Shown here: piece by piece, positions 1 to 64,000 of the stretch
Layout of the letters: each line of letters begins with the position of its first letter
How positions within the stretch are numbered: the first letter of the stretch is position 1
Assembly (NCBI RefSeq): GCF_963921235.1
Contig: NC_086108.1
Location: 59,522,001 to 59,586,000, forward strand
Source: Mobula hypostoma
Lineage: Eukaryota
DNA length: 64,000 nt
Reading direction: 5' to 3'
Program-made: the position numbers and the translations under genes
Notes under the pieces: model-generated
Database searches by the model: none
The model's input: the letters and a program-made list of their open reading frames with translations, nothing else
Told to the model about the DNA's origin: nothing

Positions 1-1138
1 TCCTTGTGTAGCTGGATCCTCAATTCCTTGATTGCAGACCTCAGTCAGTTTGTATTGGCAGCATCATCTCCTCCACAATCACCATCAGCACAGTAAACCA
101 CAAGCTGTGAGCTTCGCCCTTGCTCTACATGCTCTATAGATATGACTGTGAGGCTAAGTACAGCTCCAAAGCCATAACTGAGTATGTTGATGACACCATG
201 TTTGTCGGCCAAAACAAAGGTCGTGATGAATCAACATATAGGAGTGAGATTGATAATCTGAGTGGTACCACAACAACAAACGTTTGCTCAATGTCGGCAA
301 AACCTACGAGCCAGTTATTGAGTATAGGAGGAGAAAATCGAGGGTCCATAAGCCAGTGCTCATTAGGGATCACAGGTGGAGAGAGTCATCAACTTTAAAT
401 TCCTGGGCGTTATCATATTGGAGGATTGGTCCTGGGACCAGCACGTAAATGCCATTTCGCAGAAGGCATGGCAGTGCCTTTACATTATTAAAAGTTTACT
501 CAAATTCAGAATGTCGTCTAAAACTTTGACGAACTTTTGTAGATACACAGTGGAGTTTATCCTGACTGGTTGTATTTCAGCTTGGTATGGAAATACTAGG
601 ACCAAAGAACAGGAAAGTTTACAAGAAGTGTAGGATTTAGCCCAGGTCATCACAGGAAAAGGACTTCTGACCATTGAGCATATCTACAGAGGGCTCTGCC
701 ACAAGAAGTTAACATCCATTATCAAGGACCCCCACCATCCAGACCATGCTCTCTTCTTGCTGCTACCTTTGGGAAGGACGTACAGCAGGCTTAGGTCCCA
801 CAACACTAGGTTCAGGAGAGCTATTACCCTTCAACCACCAGGTTCCTGATCTAGTGTGGACATCTTCACACACCACAACACTGATGGTTGAAACAACCTA
901 TGAACTCGCTTTCAATGACAGTACAAACCATGTTCTCAGGATTATTTATTACTATTATTTGCTTATTTTTGTTTTTGCACAGATTGTCTTCTTTTGCATA
1001 CTGGTTGCTTGTTAGCCCTTGCATGTAGCTTTCCATTGATTCTCTTGTACTCCATTGTTCTATTGTGAATGCCTGTAAGAAAATGAGTAAAATTTGGTTA
1101 CATATATGCACTTTGATAATAAATTCATGTTGAACTTT
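1..1138 (+). mobile_element. Rex1/Babar-type LINE, decayed 3' portion (RT C-terminal part plus 3' UTR)
   Basis: ORF fragments YVDDT.., FKFLGVIILEDWSWDQH..KAWQCLY, TLTNFCRYTVEFILTGCISAWYG match the better-preserved Rex1-type ORF at 20337-21734. Frameshifted, and ends with AATAAA plus a short tail. Confidence 0.85.
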
Positions 1139-1791
1139 GTGATAGAGGGACTTACTAGAGAAGGAGCAACACTGGACATTCTGGAAAATGAGATCGGGCA
1201 AGTGGCCAAAGTGTCTTTTAGCAAGCACTTTGGGTCCAGTAACCATAATTCTATTAGCTTTTAAATATTTACAGAGAGGGATATAACTTGATCTAGTTAT
1301 ATCTAGGATAAGGTACTGCACTGGGACAGAACAATATTTGGAGACATTAGACAGGATCTTGCAGTAATTGATTCAGCGAGATTGTTTGCAGGAAAAGGAG
1401 ACCTTTAGATGTGTAATGTAAAGAGTTCAGAGCCTGCATGCTCCTGTTAGGTTGAAGGGAAAGGCTGGCAGGTTTTGAGAACCCTGGCTGAAAGAGATAT
1501 GGAGGCCCTGGCTAAGAAAAGCAGGAAGGCGTACACTGCATATAACGCATTGGCAACAGTGAATCGCTTGACGATTATAGGAAATGTAGTTCTGTATTTA
1601 AGATAAATTTTACAATGGCAGAAAGAGAACATAGAACATAGAATAGTACAGCACAGTACAGGCCCTTCGGCCCACAATGTTGTGCCGACCCTCAAACCCT
1701 GCCTCCCATATAAGCCCCCACCTTAAATTCCTCCATACACCTGTCTTGTAGTCTCTTAAACTTCACTAGTGTATCTGCCTCCACCACTGAC

Positions 1792-4500
1792 TCAGGCAGG
1801 GTATTCCACGCACCCAACCACTCTCTGAGTAAAAAACCTTCCTCTAATATCCCCCTTGAACTTCCCACCCCTTACCTTAAAGCCATGTCCTCTTGTATTG
1901 AGCAGTGGTGCCCTGGGGAAGAGGTGCTGGCTATCCACTCTATCTATTCCTCTTATTATCTTGTACACCTCTATCATGTCTCCTCTCATCCTCCTTCTCT
2001 CCAAAGAGTAAAGCCCTAGCTCCCTTAATCTCTGATCATAATGCATACTTTCTAAACCAGGCAGCATCCTGGTAAATTTCCTCTGTACCTTTTCCAATGC
2101 TTCCACATCCTTCCTATAGTGAGGTGACCAGAACTGGACACAGCACTCCAAGTGTGGCCTAACCAGAGTTTTATAGAGCTGCATCATTACATCGCGACTC
2201 TTAAACTCTATCCCTTGACTTATGAAAGCTAACACCCCATAAGCTTTCTTAACTACCCTATCTACCTGTGAGGCAGCTTTCAGGGATCTGTGGACATGTA
2301 ACCCAGACCCCTCTGCTCCTCCACACTACCAAGTATCCTGCCATTTACTTTGTACTCTGCCTTGGAGTTTGTCCTTCCAAAGTGTACCACCTCACACTTC
2401 TCCGGGTTGAACTCCATCTGCCACTTCTCAGCCAACTTCTGCATCCTATCAATGTCTCTCTACAATCCTTGACAACCCTCTACAACACCACCAAGCTGTG
2501 TGTCGTCTGCAAACTTGCCAACCCACCCTTCTACCCCAACATCCAGGTCGTCAATAAAAATCACGAAAAGTAGAGGTCCCAGAACAGATCCTTGCGGGAC
2601 ACCACTAGTCACAATCCTCCAATCGGAATGTACTCCCTCTACCACCACCCTCTGCCTGCTGCAGGCAAGCCAATTCTGAATCCACCTGGCCAAACTTCCC
2701 TGGATTCCATGCCTTCTAACTTTCTGAATAAGCCTACCGTGTGGAACCTTGGCAAATGCCTTACTAAAATCCATATAGATCACATCCACTGCACTACCCT
2801 CATCTATATGCCTGGTCACCTCCTCAAAGAACTCTATCAGGCTTGTTAGACACGATCTGCCCTTCACAAAGCCAAGCTGACTGTCCCTGATCAGACCATG
2901 ATTCTCTAAATGCCTATAGATCCTATCTCTAAGAATCTTTTCCAACAGCTTTCCCACCACAGACGTTAGGCTAACTGGTCTATAATTACCCAGACTATCC
3001 CTACTACCTTTTTTGAACAAGGGGACAACATTCGCCTCCCTCCAATCCTCCGGTACCATTCCCATGGACAACGAGGACATAAAGATCCTAGCCAGAAATT
3101 CAGCAATCTCTTCTCTTGCCTCATGGAGCAGTCTGGGGAATATTCCGTCAGGCCCCGGGGACTTATCTGTCCTAATGTATTTTAACAACTCCAACACCTC
3201 CTCTCCCTTAGTATCAACATGCTCCAGAACATCAACCTCACTCATATTATCCTCACCATCATCAAGTTCCCTCTCATTGGTGAATACCGAAGAGAAGTAT
3301 TCATTGAGGACTTCGCTCACTTCCACAGCCTCCAGGCACATCTTCCCACCTTTATCTCTAATCAGTCCTACCTTCACTCCCGTCATCCTTTTTTTCTTCA
3401 CATAATTGAAGAATGCCTTGGGGTTTTCCTTTACCTTACTAACCAAGGCCTTCTCATGCCCCCTTCTTGCTCTTCTCAGCCCCTTCTTTAGCTCCTTTCT
3501 TGCTTCCCTATATTCCTCAATAGACCCATCTGATCCTTGCTCCTAAACCTCATGTATGCTGCCTTCTTCCACCTGACTAGATCTTCCACCTCACTTGTCA
3601 CCCATGGATCCTTCACCCTACCATTCATTATCTTCCTCACCGGGACAAATTTATCCCTAGCATCCTGCAAGAGATCGCTAAACATCGACCACATGTCCAT
3701 AGTACATTTCCCTGCAAAAACATCATCCCAGTTCACACCCGCAAGTTCTAGCCTTATAGCCTCATAATTTGCCTCTCCCCAATTAAAAATTTTCTTGTCA
3801 TCTCTGATTCTATCCTTTTCCATGATAATGCTAAAGGCCAGGGAGCGGAGGTCACTGTCCCCCAGATGCTCACCCACTGAGAGATCTGTGACCTGACCCA
3901 GTTCATTACCTAGTAAAAGATCTAGTATGGCATTCCCCCTGGTCAGCCTGTCCACATACTGTGACTGGAATCCGTCCTGGACACACTTAAGAAACTCTGC
4001 CCCATCTAAACCCTTGGAACTAATCAGGTGCCAATCAATATTAGGGAAGTTAAAGTCACCCATGATAACAACCCTGTTATTTTTGCACCTTTCCAAAACC
4101 TGCCTCCCAATCTGCTCCTCCGTATCTCTGCTGCTACCAGGGGACCTATAGAATACCCCCAGTAGAGTAACTGCTCCCTTCCTGTTCCTGACTTCCACCC
4201 ATATTGACTCAAAAGAGGATCCTGCTACATTACCCACCCTTTCTATAGCTGTAATAGTATCCCTGACCAGTAATGCCACCCCTCCTCCCCTTTTTCCACC
4301 CTCTCTATCCCTTTTAAAGCACTGAAATCCAGCAATATTGAGAATCCATTCCTGCCCTGGTGCCAGCCTAGTCTCTGTAATGGCCAGTACATCATAATTC
4401 CATGTATGTATCCAAGCTCTCAGCTCATCACCTTTGTTCCTGATGCTTTTGCATTGAGGTACACACGTTTCAGCCCTTCTACCTTACTGTCTTTACCCCG
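1792..4500 (-). pseudogene. CR1 ORF2 (APE endonuclease plus reverse transcriptase), frameshifted
   Basis: ORF track 3488-4279 (MGDFNFPNIDW, HLGDSD), 2460-3446 ([34 protein letters not shown]) and 1792-2235 (YKTLVRPHLE), in different frames. Confidence 0.93.
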
Positions 4501-35400: not shown

Positions 35401-37011
35401 AACAATTACAATTTAGTTAATCTAGGTCTTTTTTATTTTGTGTATTTAAATAATTTTAATTAAGTATCTTTGTTTTAATTAAGTTCAAAAGAACTTCTAT
35501 GAATTTTAAAATTTACAAGAGTTTTTGATTGTTACTGAAATTCAAAAATGTTCAGTGCATTTGCTTTTCCAGCATAGATGACTGTTGTTTTCAGCACTTG
35601 TACATCAGCCTTGTTCCAGTCATCCCCATATGTTGGAGTTAGGTCAGGGAGGAATTGCACTGTCACACAGTTTCTCACTCGGACTTCTGGACATGAGCCT
35701 ACACTTGAAGTTTGTGCTGGGAGAATCGTAGAACATCAGAACAAATTTCATAGAGTTATATAGAATTACAGTACAGAAATAGATCCAATGACCCATCAAA
35801 TCCATGCTGATATTAAACTTCTATTTACAGCATTCTTACCTTAACTACATCATGGGGCAAAGGACCTGTACTGTACTGTTCTATGTTCTATAACTAAGAC
35901 AAATCAAGGATAAAGGTGGGAGTTTCTGTTTAGAGTCAGAGCAATTGGTTTAGGAATTAAATGAGCACTTTGTGTTGGTATTTACCAAGGAAATGAAACT
36001 TTAGGTTAGTGAAGGCACAGTGTAGTATACTGATATGCTGGGACATTTTGAGATTAAGGAAAAGGTAGTGCTCTGTCTTCTGAAAAGCAGTAAGATGGAC
36101 AAATCCCCCAAGGAGTTGATGGCATATATCCCAGAATATTGAAAGAAGCAAGTGAGGAGATTGCTGTAGCTTTGTCGAAGATTTTTGTGTCCTTACTAGA
36201 AACAGCCAAGGTCCCAGAGGACTGGAGAGTAGCAACTCGTGTGCTTTTGCTTGTGAAACAAAATAGGATTAATCTAGGTAGTTAAAGATCAGTGAGCCTT
36301 GTCGGTGGTAGAGAAGGTTTTGGCGAGGATACTAAGAGATTGGATTTATGCACATTTGGAAAGGCAATATGGAATTTGTGCTGGGCAGGTCATGTCTCGT
36401 TAAAATTGACTGAGATTTTTGAGGATGTGATTAAGGAACTTGATGAGGGACATTATCTACATCAACCACAGTAAAGTATTTGAAAAGGTCCCTCATGAAG
36501 ATAATTCAGAAGATAAAGATGTATGGGATTTAGGACTGGGTTACCATAGAAGACACACAGTATGCATGGAATACAGTTTAACTTACTGGAGGTCTGTGAC
36601 TAGTAGCGTACATCAAAGATTGGTGCTAGGGCCTCTGTTGTTTGTAACATACAGTATATGAATGATTGGGATGAAAATGTAAATGGATCCTTTAGCAAGT
36701 TTATGGATGGAAATGATTGGTGCAGCTGTGGACTGTGTAAAGAATAATCCAAGAATTATCCTTTATATGAGATATAGATCAGTCACAGGCAGGGGCAGAG
36801 AAGTGGCAAATGGAGCTTATTCCAGGCAAGTGTGAGGTGTTGCTCTTTGGGAGGTCAAATGTATATGGTTTAGACCCCTTAATAACAATAAGAAACAGAG
36901 AGATCTTGGGGTCCAGATTGATTATTAACTGAAAATGGCGACACATGTGGGAACATACATCAAAGTTGCTGGTGAACGCAGCAGGCCAAGCAGCATCTAT
37001 AGGAAGAGGCG

Positions 37012-37049
37012 CAGTCGACGTTTCAGGCCGAGACCCTTCGTCAGGACTA
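37012..37049 (-). ncRNA. Minimal type I hammerhead ribozyme motif (Penelope-associated)
   Basis: Minus strand UAGUC-CUGACGA-A-GGGU(CUCG)GCCU-GAAACGUC^GACUG has the core boxes, helix I UAGUC/GACUG, helix II and a palindromic ACGU in place of helix III. Confidence 0.85.
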
Positions 37050-37346
37050 ACTGAAGGAAGAGTGAGTAAGGGATTTGAAAGCTGGAGGGGGAGGGGGAGA
37101 TGCAAAATGATAGGAGAAGACAGGAGGGGGAGGGATAGAGCCGAGAGCTGGACAGGTGATAGGCAAAAGGGGATACGAGAGGATCATGGGACAGGAGGTC
37201 CGGGAAGAAAGACAAGGGGGGGCGGGGTGACCCAGAGGATGGGCAAGAGGTATATTCAGAGGGACAGAGGGAGAAAAAGGAGAGTGAGAGAAAGAATGTG
37301 TGCATAAAAATGAGTAACAGATGGGGTACGAGGGGGAGGTGGGGCC

Positions 37347-38035
37347 TTAGCGGAAGTTAGAGAAGTCAATGTTCATGCCATCAGGTTGGAGGCTACCCAG
37401 ACGGAATATAAGGTGTTGTTCCTCCAACCTGAGTGTGGCTTCATCTTTACAGTAGAGGAGGCCGTGGACAGACATGTCAGAATGGGAATGGGATGTGGAA
37501 TTAAAATGTGTGGCCACTGGGAGATCCTGCTTTCTCTGGCGGACAGAGCGTAGATGTTCAGCAAAGCGGTCTCCCAGTCTGCGTCGGGTCTCACCAATAT
37601 ATAAAAGGCCACATCGGGAGCACCGGACGCAGTATATCACCCCAGTCGACTCACAGGTGAAGTGATGCCTCACCTGGAAGGACTGTTTGGGGCCCTGAAT
37701 GGTGGTAAGGGAGGAAGTGTAAGGGCATGTGTAGCACTTGTTCCGCTTACACGGATAAGTGCCAGGAGGGAGATCAGTGGGGAGGGATGGGGGGGACGAA
37801 TGGACAAGGGAGTTGTGTAGGGAGCGATCCCTGCGGAATGCAGAGAGAGGGGGGTAGGGAAAGATGTGCTTAGTGGTGGGATCCCGTAGGAGGTGACGGA
37901 AGTTACGGAGAATAATATGTTGGACCCGGAGGCTGGTGGGGTGGTAGGTGAGGACCAGGGGAACCCTATTCCTAGTGGGGTGGTGGGAGGATGGAGTGAG
38001 AGCAGATGTACGTGAAATGGGGGAGATGCGTTTGA
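37347..38035 (-). pseudogene. Penelope GIY-YIG endonuclease domain (uninterrupted frame, no own start or RT)
   Basis: GVIYCVRCSRCGLLYIGETRRRLGDRFAEH...LEEQHLI..LGSLQPDGMN, preceded by the Cys-rich linker CKRNKCYTC. Confidence 0.92.
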
Positions 38036-40920
38036 GACACATGTGGGAAGAGCAGTTAAGAAGCCATCTAACACATATGCCTTCATTAGCAGGGGGTTGA
38101 ATATAAAAGAAATGAAATCATGCTACAGATGTATAAAACTTTAGTCAGACTGCATTTGTATTACATCTAGTTCTGAATGCCCCATTAAAGGATGAATGTG
38201 GAGACTGTGAAGAGGATACAGAAAAGGTTTGCCAGGATTCTGCTTGTATTAGAAGATATGAGCTATAAGGAAAAGTTATACAAGTTTGTGTTGTTCTCTC
38301 CAGAGCATCAGGGGCTGAGGGGAAGCTTGATAGATGCTTTTAAAATTATGAAAGGCATAGATGTGGTAGACAGTCAGAATTGTTTCCTTAGGGTAGAAAT
38401 GCCAAATATCAGAGGACAGGCCTTTAATATTAGAGTGGAAATATTTAAAGGTGCTGTGAGGGCAATTTTTTAAAGTGAGTGTTACGTGCCTGGAATAGTT
38501 TACTAGGATTAGTAGTGGAAGCAGGCAGTTTGGTGGAGTTTAAGAGGCTTTTAGGTAGACAGATAAAGGGAATGGAGGGATATGGATGATAGAACATTCA
38601 GTACAAATTGCCATCAAGACTGTCACAACATCATGGGCCCGAATGGCCTGCCTAATGCTGTAGTGTTCTATGTCCCATGTTTTCCCTCTTTTTCTGTTCT
38701 GCTTCTGTTTGAACATTTCCCTTGTTTCTTTTTTCTGACTCTGCCTCGGAGTGGCCAACAAATAAAACCCCATTCATGACTAAACTGTTATAAGGAGATG
38801 CTGCCTTAAAGTGGGGCAGCAGCCTGATCCAAATTGATTGTGTGAGCCAAAATCCAATTGCCAATATGGCAGCCTTCTGCAACCAACCCCCGTGCTTGTC
38901 CAAAAAGCTAGTGTTAGGTACAAACATGAAGACACAAGAGACTGCAATGCTCCAATCTTGAATAATAAAAACAAATGACTGGAAGAACTCATGTCAGGCA
39001 GTACCTAGGGAGACTCTACAGATACTGCCTGACCTGTTGAGTTCCTCCAGAAGTTTGTTTTTTTGCTCCAGGTAATATAATCCTGGGTTCCCCTCACTTC
39101 AAATGTGGTTCTGATTTATTTTTATTTTGTAGTTCACTTTACCTGACTTTCAGTCCATTCTCCGAAACAACTTTGTCCCTCGGGACCTTATTTTGTGTTC
39201 ACTGCTGCACTGCAATTAGCAATCTACAATTGACATACTGATCCATATCCATCAAGGATTATGGCATGAAAGCTACCCCTGGAGGGCATCAGTATGAGAT
39301 CAGAGTGCTCAACTCAGCATGGCTTCCATTGCCAAGTATGAAAAATCAAGCAGTCCATGTGGGATCCTGTCGTTAATTTGACAGTAGAAAAGAACCTAGA
39401 GAGATTATATTCAGGAACCTCTTGCTTTGGCCATAGTTATAAAATGCAAGGCTAACTCCAATCAGAGCACCGAAAAAGGAAACTGAATCTATTTTTTTTC
39501 AACCTCTGTCCTCACACGGAGAGACTGTCAATAATTCTATGGTATGCAGCAAGGGGTCACTTTTAAGTTATAGATATACAACACTAAAACAGGTCCTTTG
39601 ACTAGTTAAGTCTCCACTAAACATTAACCGCCCATTTGCACTAAACCAATATTAACCATCTTTTAAAATTATTGAAATTGGTATTAATTTTTGTTAATGC
39701 CCATAAAATGAACTTGGTAAACCTAACCATTCCACTTATATTGCTAGACCTAACGAAACTAAAGTAGGTGAACTTCGGTGCCGGCCTGTTTTAGTAAATA
39801 ATTGATTTTGATGCGAAAATTAGGGACCTGTATGGCTTAATTTTAAGTTAAGTTTGCTTGAAGTTCAACCATTTTGAATTGAAATTCTACCATTTTGAAT
39901 TGAAATTCTACCAAGGATACATCAAATAAATTTAAAATTATCATTTGAAGGACCAGAAGATGCAAGGTCGGTTGACAATGCCTCCTATTTTAAGTGATTA
40001 TTCCTCATCCCAGCTTTAACACTGCAGTTGAAAGGTCATAATCATTCACTCCTCTGGAGTTGACTTCAAAATATTGTCAAAAACTCCATGGAAAGAAAGA
40101 CCTATTCTCCATGATAACCAGGCACCAGAAATAAAATTCGGTTCGAGTTTTACAATCCCATCTTGTATGATTGTATGACGTGAAATACTGCAGCCAATGT
40201 AACTCCAAAAAAAGAAGAGGGGTCAAACAATGAATAGCTTGAGATAATTATAGAAAAAATAAACCGTTTAGAAAAAGATAAAATTGAAAGCTAAGGAATC
40301 ATTGGATATTGATTTCTGGTGCCCCAAACTGCTGAATAAACACAGTAATATCAAAGGCTCTGGCCACAGGTTTTTAACTAATTAGAAAGGTAAATTGCTC
40401 TTTGGGGCTAAAGGATAATTGATAGAGCTGATTGTTTGAGATGAGAGAAAAATTAAACCAGGTATCTGTAAACTAATTAATTTAATTGGTTCTGTGTGAG
40501 CTCTTAAAATCCACAATTTGAGATAACATTTCTGAATATTTAAAAAAGTGCAAATTTAAACAAGGGCAGCCAGCATAGCCTAGTTAAAGACAAATTACTG
40601 TTAATTAACTTAAGTGAGTTTTTCATAAGAATTGACTGATTAGATAAATAAATGGAGGTTGTTGGTTGTTGGAAGAATGAATTGAGAAAACATTTGATTA
40701 CATGTTTGGTTATAGGCACATTAAAATATTCTGAGAAAATGTGGATAAATAAGTACTACAATTTGATTGACAGGAATTATACATTTTATTGAAGCAGACA
40801 TTTTTGCTATTCATTTTCATAACATGGGCACTACTGGTAGGGCCAGCAGTTATAGCCCATTGCTTGTTGTCCTTAGAAGCTGGTATTGAGCTGCATTCTT
40901 GAACTGGTGCAGTCCTAATT

Positions 40921-43278
40921 GATCTCCTATTTGGGAACCAGACAGGTCAGGTGACAGAAGTATGTGTAGGCGAGCATTTTGGATCCAGTGACCATAATGT
41001 CATTAGTTTCAAGTTCATTATGGATAAGGATAGGTCTGGTCTTCGAGTTAAGGTTCTAAATTGGAGAAGGGCCAATTTTGAGGAAATGAGAAAGGATCTA
41101 GGAAGTGTGGATTAGGATAAGTTGTTTTCTGGCAAGGATGTGTTCAGTATGTGGAAGGCATTCAAAGGCAAAATTTTGAGAGTGCAGTGTTTGCATGTTC
41201 CTGCCAGGATTAAAGACAAAGTTAACAGGCATAGGGAACCTTGGTTTTCAAGGTATATTGGTGATCTGGTTAAGAAAAAAAGAGAGAGGTGTATAGCAGG
41301 TAGTGGCAACAAGGAACAAATGAGGTACTTGAAGAGAATAGAAAATGTAAGAAAATACTAAAGAAGGAAATCAGGAAGGCAAAAAGAAAATATGAGGTTG
41401 CTTTGGCAGATAATGTGAAGGTAAACCCGTAGGGTTTCTACAAGTATATTAAGAGTAAAAGGATAGTAAGTGACAAAGTTGGTCCCCTAGAAGATCAAAG
41501 TGGTTGTGTATGTGAGGAGCCTCACGAGATGGGGGAGATCTTAAACAATTTTTTTTGCATCAGTATTTACTCAGGAAACTGGCATAGTGTATATAGAAGG
41601 AAGGGAAACAAGCAGTAGTGTCATGGAACATATAGAGATTAAAGGGGAGGAGGTGCTTTCTGCCTTGCAGCAAATAAAGGTAGATAAATCCCCCAGGCCT
41701 GACATGATATTTCCTCGGACCTGGAGACAGACTAGTGTAGAGATTGCCCTGGTAGAAATATCTAAAATGTCCTTAGCCACGGGTGCGGTGCCAGAGGATT
41801 GGAGGGTAGCTCATGTTGTTCCATTGTTTAAAAAAGGCTTCAAAAAGTAAACCAGGTGATTACAGGCCGATGAGCCTGACATCAGTAGTAGGTGAATTAT
41901 TGGAAGGTGTTCTGAGAGATCGGATATACAATTATTTGGACAGCCAAGGGCTGATTAAGGATAGTCATCATGGCTTTGTGCGTGGTAGATTGTGTTTAAT
42001 GAATCTTGTAGAGTTTTTCGAGGAGGTTACCAAGAAAGTAGATGAAGGAAAGGCTGTGGATGTTGTCTACATGGACTTTAGTAAGGCCTTTAACAAGGTC
42101 CCACATAGAAGGTTAGTTCAGAAGGTTCAGACACTAGATATCCATGGAGAGGTTGTAAACTGGATTTGAAATTGGCTGTATGGGAGAAGACAGAGAGTGG
42201 TAGTGGATGATTGCTTCTCAGACTGGAGGCCTGTGACAAGTGGTGTGTCTTAAGGATCTGTGCTGGGACCATTGTTGTTTGTTGCCTATATCAATGATCT
42301 AGATAATAATGTGGTAAATTGGATTAGCAAGTTTGCTGATGACACTAAGATTGGAGGCGTTGTAGACAGCGAGGAAGGCTTTCAGAGCTTGCAAAGGGAT
42401 CTGGACCAAATTGAAAAATGGGCCAGAAAATGACAGATGGAATTTAATGCAGATGTGTGAGGTGTTGCATTTTGGAAGGACAAATCAAGGTAAGATATAC
42501 ACAGTAAATGGCAGGGCAGTGAGGAGTGCGGAGGAACAAAGAGATCTGGGAGCTCAGATACATAATTCCCTGAAAGTGGTGTCACAGGTAGACAGGGTTG
42601 TAAAGGCGGCTTTTGGCATCCTGGCATTCATAAATCAAAGTATTGATTATAGGAGTTGGGATGTTATGGGGAGGTTGTATAAGACATTGGTGAGGCCAAA
42701 TTTGGAATATTATTTACAGTTCTGGTCAACTAACTATAGGAAGGATATCAGTAAGATTGAAAGAGTGCAGAGAAGATTTGCTAGGATGTTGCCAGGTCTT
42801 CAGGAGTTGAGTTACAGGGACAGATTGAACAGGTTAGGACTTTATTCCTTGGAGCGTAGAAGAATGAGGGGAGATTTGATAGAGGTTTACAAAATTATGC
42901 GGGGTATAGACAGTGTTATGTACCCCGTAACTGGGTTGCCAAACTAGCAGAAATGGATCACTTGTTGGAATCTGGATTACTAGAAACTAATAAAGTTTTA
43001 TTAAAGAAATAAGTAACACAGTACTCTAATCGTAAGGATATAAATGCAACAGGTTAGCAATGATAAAACACACATGTACACAGAACTAGGGTAATAGGAA
43101 TCAACCAAGCTGTATCGCAGTCTAGGGGTAAAATGATCAGTCTCAAGTAACGCAGAGTTCAGTTCAGCTTAGTACTGTTCGCTGTAATGCCATTGGGGGG
43201 GAGGGAGAGGGAGGGAGGGAGAGAGAGGGAGAGGGAGAGGGAGAGGAGGAGAGAGAGAGAGAGGGGGAAGAGAGAGGG

Positions 43279-53000: not shown

Positions 53001-53617
53001 ACGTTACTGTTTCTGTTGTAGGAGAATATCTAATAAAATGAGACGCATGCCTATCCAAGCAATTTTTTTTCATGATGGCTTGCTTTGTCTTGTCCCATTC
53101 AACCTAATGATCTCCCTTGTTGTGAAAATAAAATAATAGCTAGTTGATTAGTATTGGTGTCTGATGAGGAGTGTGATGCAGTATTTCCAGGGTCTAACCA
53201 CAAGAAGGATTTAGATTTTCAAACTCCATGTCAATTAAACATCCTCAGATATACCTATGTCCTCTGATCTAGCTATTGACTTCCAACTCTCAATGAGTAT
53301 TGTCTCGTAGTTTATTTGTAATTTATTTGCACTCTATTTGTTCATCTGCACTGCAATTTCTCTGCAGCTGCATTCTATTTTTCTACTACTTTGATGTACC
53401 GTACATATTTAAAGTACAGTGTGATCTGCTTGGATGACATGCTAACAAAATCTTTTTGTATCTTGTAGACATTGCAATAATAATCTAATACCAGTAACAA
53501 TACGACATACCCTATGATGCAAACAACAGGAATTCTGCAGATGCTGGAAATTCAAGCAACACACATCAAAGTTGCTGGTGAACGCAGCAGGCCAGGCAGC
53601 ATCTATAGGAAGAGGCG

Positions 53618-53655
53618 CAGTCGACATTTCAGGCCGAGACCCTTCGTCAGGACTA
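53618..53655 (-). ncRNA. Minimal hammerhead motif (GAAAUGUC variant)
   Basis: Same as 37012-37049 except ACGU changed to AUGU. Confidence 0.75.
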
Positions 53656-53855
53656 ACTGAAGGAAGAGTGAGTAAGGGATTTGAAAGCTGGAGGGGAATC
53701 TAAACTTCTTCGGTGTAGGCATCACCGGAAGAGGCTTCGCAGTAGTGAATTTAAACGCAAACAACAGGAATTCTGCAGATGCTGGAAATTCAAGCAACAC
53801 ACATCAAAGTTGCTGGTGAACGCAGCAGGCCAGGCAGCATCTATAGGAAGAGGCG

Positions 53856-53893
53856 CAGTCGACGTTTCAGGCCGAGACCCTTCGTCAGGACTA
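53856..53893 (-). ncRNA. Minimal hammerhead motif (intact)
   Basis: Identical to 37012-37049. Confidence 0.85.
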
Positions 53894-54664
53894 ACTGAAG
53901 GAAGAGTGAGTAAGGGATTTGAACCCTATGATGAATGATCAAGGACTGGCTGACCAACAAAGTTATTGAAGCCTTGCAATAAGGATTTCTCAGTCTCATT
54001 CTCCACTGCCTTGGAGAGGATCATGAATTTGGGTTATGGTACGATGAAGCCTCAGGCATCTTTATTCCCATACAGCATTCATCGATAACAAGACATCTGG
54101 CCTCAGGAGCTCGACAGATGGAATTGTTTCAGACTGTTTTGGTCTGGTACGTCCCATACTTTCTGCAATCTCCTGCTCTCAGTAATGTATCAATACATGT
54201 TCTCTGATGGATTCCCTTGTTACTGGCTTTGGATTTTGTAGAATATTTGAACGTAGCATTATGTAACATGGCTAACCAGTCATTTTATATTGGTTTGTAC
54301 TTATTATAATTAATTAAATTGGCACTTTCCTGAAACTTAGCGGTAATATTCAGTGATAATGAGACTGCAGGAATTAATTCCATTTATTTTGAAATCTCTC
54401 CATGTTTATCACAGATGTAGTCACATGCTGAAAAATGGGAAATTGCATATATTTTTATGTCAAAACTCTTTCTGACCCAACCACAAGTTGTCCACACTTA
54501 CTCAACTGATTACCCTTCCAAGGCATTTTAATACCTAAAAATGTGTGTGCATGTGATAAATAAATCTGAAACTGAATATGAATCTCCTTCCTCCCCACCC
54601 TTCTTGTTCTGTCTGGTCAAGTAATTCAAGGAAATTTCTCCAATGAATTGGTCTCAGGCAATTC

Positions 54665-62784: not shown

Positions 62785-63814
62785 TTCCAAGTACCCAGTT
62801 TTGGTCACCACTGTAATCCCTCACCAGGACTGCTTGACCTGGAGAGAAACATTGAGCCTCCCTGTTTGAGGAACCCTCAAGTTGGCTTAGCTCTTAGGCC
62901 TTCATACTCCTTCTGAGACTGGGTTTGAGCAGATCCGAGCAAAAGGCCCAAAGGATAACCCAGGAGCAGCATAATCGGTGAGTTGTTGGTTATGGAGCGT
63001 GCTGCATTGCAATACACAATGAAGAAATAAGTGAGCTTCTGATTCAGTGTCAGTGTAGTGTGTTCTGCTGACATTGCTGGCAGTGCATTCTTTAAAATCT
63101 GGACAAACTTTTCCACCAAACCATTTGTAGCTGGGTGGTATGGTATACAGTAGATGTAATATGTTGTTTTCCATTCATTTTCAGAAATGACTGAAACTGT
63201 TCCACAACAAGCTGTGGTCCATTGTCACCGACTAAGCGTTCTGGAACACCAGTCCCTGAGAAGAGTCTTCTTAACATATCAACAGTGTACAAGACTGTAG
63301 AGGAGATTTTTGGGAACTCTTCTGGCCACTTTGGAGTTGCATCTGCCACTACTAAGAAATTTATGCTCATGAATGGTCTGGCAAAATCCACACGAATCCT
63401 CTGCCAGGGCAATACGTCATTCTCAGGGAATGAGTGGCTCTGCTCTTGGCATCTTCTGGATGTGTTGGCATACTGAACAGTGCATGGCATGTTGCTCAAT
63501 CTACTGATGTGTTCCAGGGCACCAGACATAGCTTTGAGCCAACACTTTCATTTTGATCATGCATAGATAATTGATATATATCTGCTCCAACACTTTAGCT
63601 ATCAGCTTGGATCCCCACACTCAGTCTGCACATTCCAGCCATTTTGAGTTGCTATGTAGATATGAGACTGTGTGTGGTCTTTTCTGGTTTCCCTCTTCCA
63701 TAATAGGGAGACTTTTGATTTGCATTAGGGAGAATATGTTACGAGGAGTGTCCTTTTTTGTAAATTTTTCAGGTATTTCATTTTCTAAGGGCAAACAGGA
63801 CAATCCATTAGCAT

Positions 63815-64000
63815 CACACACAAAATGCTGGTGGAATACAGCAGGCCAGGCAGCATCTATAGGAAGAGGTACAGTCGATGTTTCAGGCTGAGACCCTTCA
63901 TCAGGACCAACTGAAAGAAGAGATAGTAAGAGATTTGAAAGTGGGAGGGGGAGGGGGAGATCGGAAATGACAGGAGAAGACAGGAGGGGGAGGGATGGAG
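63815..64000 (-). mobile_element. 3' end of another Penelope-like element, running off the window
   Basis: Homologous to 36954-37140 and inserted into the Gypsy pol region. Confidence 0.85.
63872..63909 (-). ncRNA. Minimal hammerhead motif (AUC triplet variant)
   Basis: Minus strand UGGUC-CUGAUGA-A-GGGU(CUCA)GCCU-GAAACAUC^GACUG. Confidence 0.7.

Follow-up and report, generated by a model that had tools for sequence, protein, structure and literature searches.

A non-coding insert with two hammerhead motifs in the Mobula hypostoma genome: retrozyme-like in layout, probably a template-switch product of a Penelope-like element

Is a short, non-coding insert that carries two hammerhead ribozyme motifs a member of a self-propagating family of retrozymes, or did an ordinary Penelope-like element (PLE) leave it behind in a single integration event? 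The question is raised by a 403-bp insert in a stretch of 64,000 nucleotides of the Mobula hypostoma genome (assembly GCF_963921235.1, contig NC_086108.1, positions 59,522,001 to 59,586,000 of the forward strand), which we call the window and in which coordinates are given unless stated otherwise. We consider it probable that an abundant PLE with recent activity gave rise to the insert, a non-coding copy with an internal deletion, in one integration event during which the reverse transcriptase (RT) switched templates. The locus is, to judge by its sequence, retrozyme-like in layout and a singleton without descendants.

The insert lies at 53520–53922 and is bounded by an 11-bp duplication, ACCCTATGATG, the left copy of which is at 53509–53519 and the right copy, the same 11-mer, at 53923–53933; one base at each border is assignable equally to the element or to the target-site duplication (TSD). 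It is built on a 167-nt direct repeat, the two copies of which (53519–53685 and 53757–53923) are 99% identical and start 238 nt apart, and they differ at a single C/T position within the hammerhead, where the minus strand reads GAAACGTC in one copy and GAAATGTC in the other. The length of the insert corresponds to 1.69 units of 238 nt, and Tandem Repeats Finder (TRF) called neither a 238-nt period nor a tandem repeat there. The G+C content is 49.1%, compared with 40.4% across the window. No ATG-initiated open reading frame (ORF) of more than 61 amino acids overlaps the insert (genetic code table 1), and the longest ORFs extend out into the flanks.

Public sequencing contigs, which we compared with positions 53440–54000 (runs X1 from organism A, X5, a DNA run from organism B, X6 and X12), contain both states of the site. 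A 3158-nt DNA contig from organism B (record 17 of run X5) joins 53508 to 53923 and skips 414 bases, with 11 letters that fit either side, i.e., the site is empty there and ACCCTATGATG occurs once; across 147 flanking bases, the contig and the window disagree at 3. Both insert borders are crossed by contigs of run X1 from organism A, which represent the filled site; organism A may be the sample from which the assembly was made. The insertion is thus real and recent, a second organism lacks it at this site, and the duplication is not due to chance, so that the 403-bp insert and 11-bp duplication of the original prediction are confirmed at their positions, with one 11-mer at the empty site. Word depth ranges from 6 to 45 in the flanks versus 10^5 to 10^7 inside the insert, which marks the flanks as single-copy and the insert as part of a huge family.

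The identity of that family follows from the stretch between the two repeats. A search of the 3.48-Gb assembly with positions 53680–53762 of the minus strand gave 1205 first-look candidates, 40 of which were scored, with matches at 46 places. At these places the linker is 96–100% identical, and the linker plus GTTTG ~100%; all 83 query bases are matched by the window copy only, the others ending at query base 65–75, which is the linker/repeat junction. Thirty loci, representing 25 distinct places, were inspected: at 15 of the places the linker stands after a tail (..CCTGTTGTTTG) and continues into a long element, at nine it jumps back into the tail, and one deviates otherwise. By this match, the linker (53698–53757, minus strand, CGTTTAAATTCAC...GTTTAGAT) corresponds to the initial 60 nt of the 5′ leader in a PLE of ~3.5 kb with RT and GIY-YIG domains, which has more than 1000 candidate copies in the genome, counted as first-look candidates. 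The linker is 100% identical to unit positions 1–60 of a full-length copy, L032, in which two hammerhead cores lie 3513 nt apart and the ORF is broken into pieces that match RVT_1 (E 1e-3, 19.4 bits versus a cut-off of 29.6) and GIY-YIG (E 2e-4, 21.8 versus 22.6 bits).

Expressed on the 3513-nt PLE unit, the order of the insert is tail 3348–3513, leader 1–60, one nucleotide, and tail 3337–3513, and the insert locus (L052) aligns to the natural copy L032 at 3348–3510, 1–60 and 3337–3510 with 99–100% identity. The upstream tail, “A” (53758–53922, minus strand), comprises the last 165–166 nt of the unit (~3348–3513) and is a 5′-truncated upstream copy, of the kind called a pseudo-long terminal repeat (pLTR). 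The internal tail, “B” (53520–53696, minus strand, read from 53696 to 53520), is the last 177 nt of the unit (3337–3513; L052 1520–1693 aligned to unit 3337–3510 at 99%) and terminates in ..CCTGTTGTTTG, the usual 3′ end of the family. Between the leader and tail “B” the alignment leaves a single base at 53697, T on the minus strand, which could be either filler or part of a “GATTC” leader variant as in L002 and L003. Unit positions 61–3336, the ORF included, are missing, so the insert has no RT or endonuclease (EN) reading frame of its own. With a single difference between the two tails over 165 nt, little time has elapsed. Of the two Penelope repeats and the ~60-bp linker described in the original prediction, the repeats hold as PLE 3′ tails (pLTR), and the linker is itself PLE sequence, the 5′ leader.

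Each tail carries a hammerhead on the minus strand, as had been noticed before: hammerhead “A” at 53856–53893, with its core at 53861–53888, and hammerhead “B” at 53618–53655, with helix I strands at 53651–53655 and 53618–53622 and the core plus helix II at 53623–53650. Cores of the form CTGACGA-N13-GAAA(C/T)GTC occur at three places on the minus strand of the window, these two and a third at 37017–37044, versus 0.07 expected, and none of 100 shuffles reached three. Hammerhead “A” reads GAAACGUC, with a predicted cut after the C at 53861, and hammerhead “B” reads GAAAUGUC (15.2 = U), with a predicted cut after the C at 53623; on the PLE unit, the core begins at 3383 and the predicted cut falls after 3410. 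The conserved core positions C3–A9, G12–A14, A15.1, U16.1 and H17 are present in both copies (CUGACGA..GAAAC/UGUC), with one extra A after position 9 and with helix III absent, and the 10.1–11.1 pair would be G.U (with the extra A) or A-U, not G-C. Minimum free energy (MFE) folds of 50-nt segments give a helix I of 5 bp (UAGUC/GACUG) and a helix II of 4 bp (GGGU/GCCU) with two G.U pairs, at −11.7 and −10.0 kcal/mol. The core sequence and the predicted folds agree with the earlier description of these hammerheads as minimal and lacking helix III, and together with the alignment to the PLE unit they support a reading of both repeats as PLE 3′ tails with a minimal type I hammerhead. No Rfam hammerhead family reached the gathering score in the window or E ≤ 10 in 53400–54050, as expected because the motif is without helix III. 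A tRNA-Sec-like Rfam hit at 53904–53995 (17.5 bits, E 1.2) was rejected as chance: it includes TSD and flank bases and is absent from the internal tail.

Between GAA and C17, copy “A” has A-C-G-U, which is palindromic, and copy “B” has A-U-G-U. The pairing of ACGU with AUGU that had been proposed for a dimer in cis (A-U, C-G, G.U, U-A) is arithmetically right on paper; such a contact would cross both helices I and form a pseudoknot, which lies outside the scoring of nested folding (RNAfold, cofold). The AUGU of copy “B” is more likely decay than design, being a CpG-to-TpG change from the family-usual ACGU. The copies are near-identical, giving no covariation signal to read, and the differences of the older copy in the window come mainly from CpG decay. 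In the MFE fold of the whole insert, helices I and II are formed and the core is shut by GACG/CGUC pairing, which is uninformative on catalysis. The predicted 238-nt unit RNA (53860 to 53623) has an MFE of −56.1 versus a shuffle mean of −52.5 (z −0.88), and 33 of 200 shuffles are as stable.

Whether the insert has relatives of the same make can be read from its junction. A 34-nt junction pattern with up to 2 mismatches has one match in the genome, the window itself, and its reversed control has none. The 22-nt pattern (one free base, ≤2 mismatches) has 13 matches, of which only the window's has fewer than 2 mismatches; 9 of the 12 others were fetched, and none of these has the structure of the insert. 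Two of the nine, L074 and L075, share a distinct fusion of greater age; L082 consists of a solo tail that begins at unit 3336, and the other six are unrelated. Within the limit that match counts are lower bounds in an assembly this large, the leader/tail junction ..TTTAGATT/CCCCTCCAGC.. is private to the locus. The idea of a family in the original prediction, for which recurrence of the junction had been named as the yardstick, did not survive: the junction (..tttagatt/cccctccagc.. on the minus strand) occurs once in the genome, and that yardstick points to a one-off template-jump product. No run recorded as RNA contained this stretch. Contigs of runs X6 and X12, which are RNA by guess only, match the repeated parts alone and diverge at 53696/53698, and none bridges the private junction, a weak test that is silent on expression.

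As for L074 (C1:45744672) and L075 (C1:54386041), at 92–93% identity, ~20 nt of the 3′ part of the leader is joined there to unit 3296, and the fusion is preceded by sequence outside the reference unit; the two may belong to a small family of greater age or to another subfamily.

How, then, could a single event have produced this order? We infer the following course from the end-products. Target-primed reverse transcription would start at the usual family 3′ end (..GTTTG), and ~177 nt of tail would be copied, through the uncut hammerhead; the enzyme would jump to leader position 60, run to position 1 and on into the tail preceding that leader on the template, and copying would stop after 165 nt. 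The two hammerheads are no more than what every tail carries. Template switching is preferred for this locus because it needs no parent locus and none was found. If the minus strand were transcribed, the minimal hammerheads would have to pair via ACGU/AUGU in order to cut, and the predicted outcome is release of a 238-nt RNA, which could be closed by a tRNA ligase. By analogy with the PLE of Anolis in vitro, the enzyme would likely start upstream of the bound leader, and the transcript would mainly seed solo tails, not copies of itself.

The ends of other family members accord with this course. The 3′ ends fall into two clusters, at unit 3475–3484 (13 of 59 tails) and 3510–3524 (38 of 59), and some extend a few bases into the leader, which matches the “tail” of PLEs and the published behaviour of the Anolis PLE, whose enzyme initiates reverse transcription internally, at two sites, on an RNA that extends further downstream (PMC11167929). 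Short tails, i.e., the 44 that do not extend below 3300, begin at unit 3370–3389 in 32 cases; these starts lie upstream of the cut site, so the RNA was copied uncut, as has been reported in vitro with the Anolis PLE (PMC11167929).

In the 52 sampled loci, solo tails start sharply at 3370–3389, just upstream of the hammerhead core, and leader fusions land there too; the cluster points to an RNA with a defined 5′ end or to a position at which the RT stops strongly. A bulged hairpin, CUUCCGGUG-AUGCCUA-CACCGAAG, is predicted in the leader itself (53698–53757 on the minus strand, and all leader copies), a short way downstream of the family 3′-end sites, and by analogy with the Anolis PLE this hairpin may be a binding site for the enzyme.

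The insert is not the only fusion of leader to tail. A pattern of “leader 3′ part, 1–70 bases, hammerhead core” has 41 exact matches in the genome and none in a control, and these 41 matches, sampled together with the 30 loci above, comprise 28 junction types, the window's included. Nearly all aligned loci have the form partial tail, leader 1–N, and tail from Y to the 3′ end, with N 58–117 and Y 3337–3384. The breakpoints of the 28 types are confined to leader 58–135 and unit 3337–3384, a clustering that is partly by design, the search having demanded a core no more than 70 nt from the 3′ part of the leader. The junctions have either 1–8 nt of overlap (up to 19 in one alignment) or 1–8 nt of filler. 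In the unselected search, 3 of 19 equal-ranked loci (L016, L019 and L020 among L012–L030) jump from leader to tail as well, and L017 deviates elsewhere. TSDs of 7–14 bp surround 11 of the 29 other blocks, and many of the remaining blocks abut inverted PLE copies. Some fusions have grown into arrays with an intact core in each unit: L050 has four cores at 216 nt, with five leader units and a 6–9-bp flanking duplication, L044 four at 233, L048 four at 222 and L062 three at 214, and there are also two cores at 248 and two at 275. In another array (L005–L010, C36:22144180–22145138), at least six units of 151 nt consist of leader plus the last part of the tail and have lost the hammerhead, from which it follows that tandem growth of fusions needs no ribozyme.

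The upstream tails of these mini-elements are informative on the template. In 23 of 23 mini-elements the upstream tail reaches no further 5′ than the internal tail, and none passes the junction point, whereas the upstream copy of long elements reaches below unit 3300 in 8 of 12 (Fisher p = 2e-5). This contrast indicates that the upstream part of the mini-elements was copied from a short template and argues against later deletion in the genome. It fits an RNA with its 5′ end near the junction point, from which end the enzyme would jump into the leader.

Two pairs of these loci are of interest in their own right. The mini-element L061 (C58:37730668) and the three-unit array L062–L064 (C58:37739477–37739959, 214-nt period) share the same junction with the same 5–6 nt of filler and, at 9 kb from each other, run in opposite orientation; parent and offspring is one possibility, a single two-armed insertion another. 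L067 (C58:68667061) and L072 (C76:6598348) have an identical mini-array and identical flanks on different contigs, and are probably a segmental or assembly duplicate.

Several observations weigh against a one-off template switch. Three junction types occur at 2–3 places with different flanks (L040/L041; L061 versus L062–L064; L066 versus L067), and arrays of 3–5 units exist, one of them with a short flanking duplication (L050); recurring junctions and arrays together mean that elements of this design can propagate. The upstream tail never reaching beyond the internal one is also compatible with a template that already existed as a 238-nt multimeric or circular RNA, the parent locus of which could be unassembled or lost, and the genome search yields lower bounds. 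In addition, the template-switch step is read from end-products, the analogy to Anolis PAc crosses PLE clades, and both Pfam matches of L032 fall under their curated cut-offs.

These points leave room for a wider reading, which we put forward tentatively, as a possibility less probable than the simple event: the locus could be a generation-zero retrozyme. The PLE enzyme would repeatedly leave its template a short distance upstream of the hammerhead, perhaps where an RNA started in the pLTR has its 5′ end, and jump into the leader of its own element; each jump would yield a private mini-element with two hammerheads, and a minority, likely via a closed unit RNA copied round, would yield the 3–5-unit arrays and the repeated junctions.

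That the insert is already a member of a self-propagating retrozyme lineage, in which a hammerhead-cut, circularised 238-nt RNA was copied ~1.7 times round by the PLE RT and inserted, seems to us unlikely. Such a lineage would account for two complete direct-order hammerheads 238 nt apart and an 11-bp TSD, and rolling-circle or multimer copying predicts exactly what is found at 1.69 units, an upstream tail short of the unit junction, as in all 23 mini-elements versus 8 of 12 long elements passing it. The same genome has arrays of 214–275-nt units with an intact core in each, and the model is in print for animal retrozymes (PMC7229834). For a circle to form, however, a two-hammerhead locus with this junction must already have existed; none was seen, just as no second copy of the junction was found in 3.48 Gb. 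Moreover, the unit RNA folds no better than its shuffles (z −0.88; 33 of 200), and the cleavage of minimal PLE hammerheads is weak in vitro (PMC4209133) or requires protein (PMC11167929).

We give still less weight to a history in two steps, in which a full-length PLE with an upstream pLTR inserted and ~3.3 kb, from leader 60 to unit 3337, was later deleted from the genome. One locus cannot separate a deletion in DNA from one during reverse transcription, and the junction, with an overlap of ≤1–2 nt plus a possible filler base, is what end-joining would give. Against this stand the 28 junction types, which break in two narrow zones (partly by search design), and the 3 of 19 equal-ranked loci of the unselected search that make the same jump; random later deletions would not leave the upstream tails of the mini-elements always short (0 of 23 versus 8 of 12, p = 2e-5), and with 1 difference in 165 nt between the tails little time has passed. 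Splicing as the origin of the deletion was rejected: the missing segment starts with CC.. and ends with ..TC, not GT..AG, and there are 28 different junctions. Takeover by the host, e.g. as a source of regulatory small or circular RNA, has only the two intact hammerhead cores and a general suggestion in the retrozyme literature in its favour, and is highly improbable for a singleton locus that is absent in organism B, whose private junction is bridged by no RNA contig (a weak test) and whose unit RNA has no unusual fold stability.

The preferred reading, an internally deleted PLE copy made by template switching, can be placed among known systems. Animal retrozymes without long terminal repeats (non-LTR retrozymes) are tandem repeats of 150–450-bp units; they have hammerheads of type I, a low GC content and TSDs of >4 bp, they are expressed as 170–400-nt circles, and their mobilisation by PLEs was proposed (Cervera and de la Pena 2020, PMC7229834). 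In a survey of 31 vertebrates, which included one chondrichthyan with retrozymes, retrozymes co-occur with PLEs, and Xenopus retrozymes are related to pLTRs, so that retrozymes were proposed to be non-autonomous PLE derivatives (Li, Clavereau and Pollet 2026, bioRxiv 10.64898/2026.07.22.740005). Mobilisation of retrozymes by Penelope elements in vertebrates, one chondrichthyan included, is thus already in print as a concept (PMC7229834; 10.64898/2026.07.22.740005). The insert resembles these animal elements in its 238-nt non-coding unit, which is within the 170–400 range, its direct-order type I hammerheads, a GC content of 49.1% (<50%) and a TSD of >4 bp, and it resembles the Xenopus families in that its sequence comes from a PLE pLTR. 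Unlike animal non-LTR retrozymes, it has 1.69 units, no TRF call and a private junction, hence no family; unlike most of them, which have canonical type I hammerheads, it has the minimal PLE-type hammerhead; and unlike the highly self-paired retrozyme circles in print, its predicted unit RNA is not notably self-paired. The 2026 preprint asks for a TRF repeat in which two or more consecutive units carry complete motifs, and by this criterion the locus is borderline, with two complete motifs on the one hand and only 1.69 units and no TRF call on the other. The retrozyme-like layout that had been proposed does fit the published description of animal non-LTR retrozymes (PMC7229834) in its direct-order hammerheads, 238-nt non-coding unit and TSD of >4 bp; of the Penelope-mobilised, retrozyme-like unit, what remains is this layout, in a singleton that consists of PLE sequence only.

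The hammerheads are closest to those of PLE pLTRs, which are minimal, for which action as dimers was proposed and which have low activity in vitro (Cervera and de la Pena 2014, PMC4209133). Shared with these are the CUGANGA..GAAA..UC core without helix III, the extra base after position 9, a helix I of 5 bp, the family-usual palindromic ACGU at 15.1–16.1 and the position in the terminal repeat of an element with RT and GIY-YIG domains. The predicted helix II of 4 bp with two G.U pairs is unlike that of the Schistosoma families (7–8 bp; PMC4209133), and the conserved G10.1-C11.1 of the published motif is replaced by G.U or A-U, with AUGU in copy “B”.

The arrangement of an upstream 5′-truncated copy followed by the 5′ end of the element is that of partial-tandem (pLTR) insertions of endonuclease-containing (EN+) PLEs, which have a 30–40-bp “tail” (Craig et al. 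2021, PMC8557442; Frangieh et al. 2024, PMC11167929). As in EN+ PLEs, the family has two 3′ ends, ~35 nt apart, and there are head-to-head neighbours at several related loci (PMC8557442, PMC11167929). Unlike the EN+ PLE pLTR insertions, the insert is without almost the whole element (unit 61–3336, ORF included). With the LTR retrozymes of plants (Cervera et al. 2016, PMC4918200) it shares a non-autonomous nature and two hammerheads in terminal direct repeats, and it would likewise release a circularisable RNA of unit length; type III hammerheads, real LTRs, a primer binding site, a polypurine tract, 4-bp TSDs and mobilisation by Gypsy belong to the plant elements only (PMC7229834), and none of these is present in the insert.

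As a single locus, the insert matters little, being a dead-end, non-coding remnant of a known class of retrotransposon. Its value is that of a clean, dated example, flanked by a TSD, with an empty site in a relative and with tails that are 99% identical. The locus is one of at least 28 independently made leader–tail fusions in the genome, and that population is the more useful lead: it could allow the origin of a ribozyme-bearing, non-autonomous element to be tested with regard to where the enzyme starts, where the template ends, and whether hammerhead cutting and RNA circles are needed.

The window contains other remains of the same family. A separate, 5′-truncated copy of the PLE lies at 36952–38117 on the minus strand and includes the end of the ORF, the 3′ untranslated region and a tail with the third hammerhead (37017–37044). 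The end of its ORF (37347–38117, minus strand) reads ..PCKRNKCYTCPY..GVIYCVRC..LLYIGET..FSNFR*, and by eye a CX4CxxC linker is seen before GIY-YIG. A CX2-5CxxC motif upstream of GIY-YIG is thus present in this fragment, as in the EN linker ascribed to the Neptune and Nematis clades (PMC8557442), a further likeness to EN+ PLEs. An older copy of the same tail, 85% identical, lies at 63810–63950 on the minus strand with a CpG-decayed hammerhead (GAAACATC), and implies a long period of activity for the family. Retroelements are dense in the window, and at 41545–42947 on the plus strand there are ORF pieces of an unrelated RT of the long interspersed element (LINE) type.

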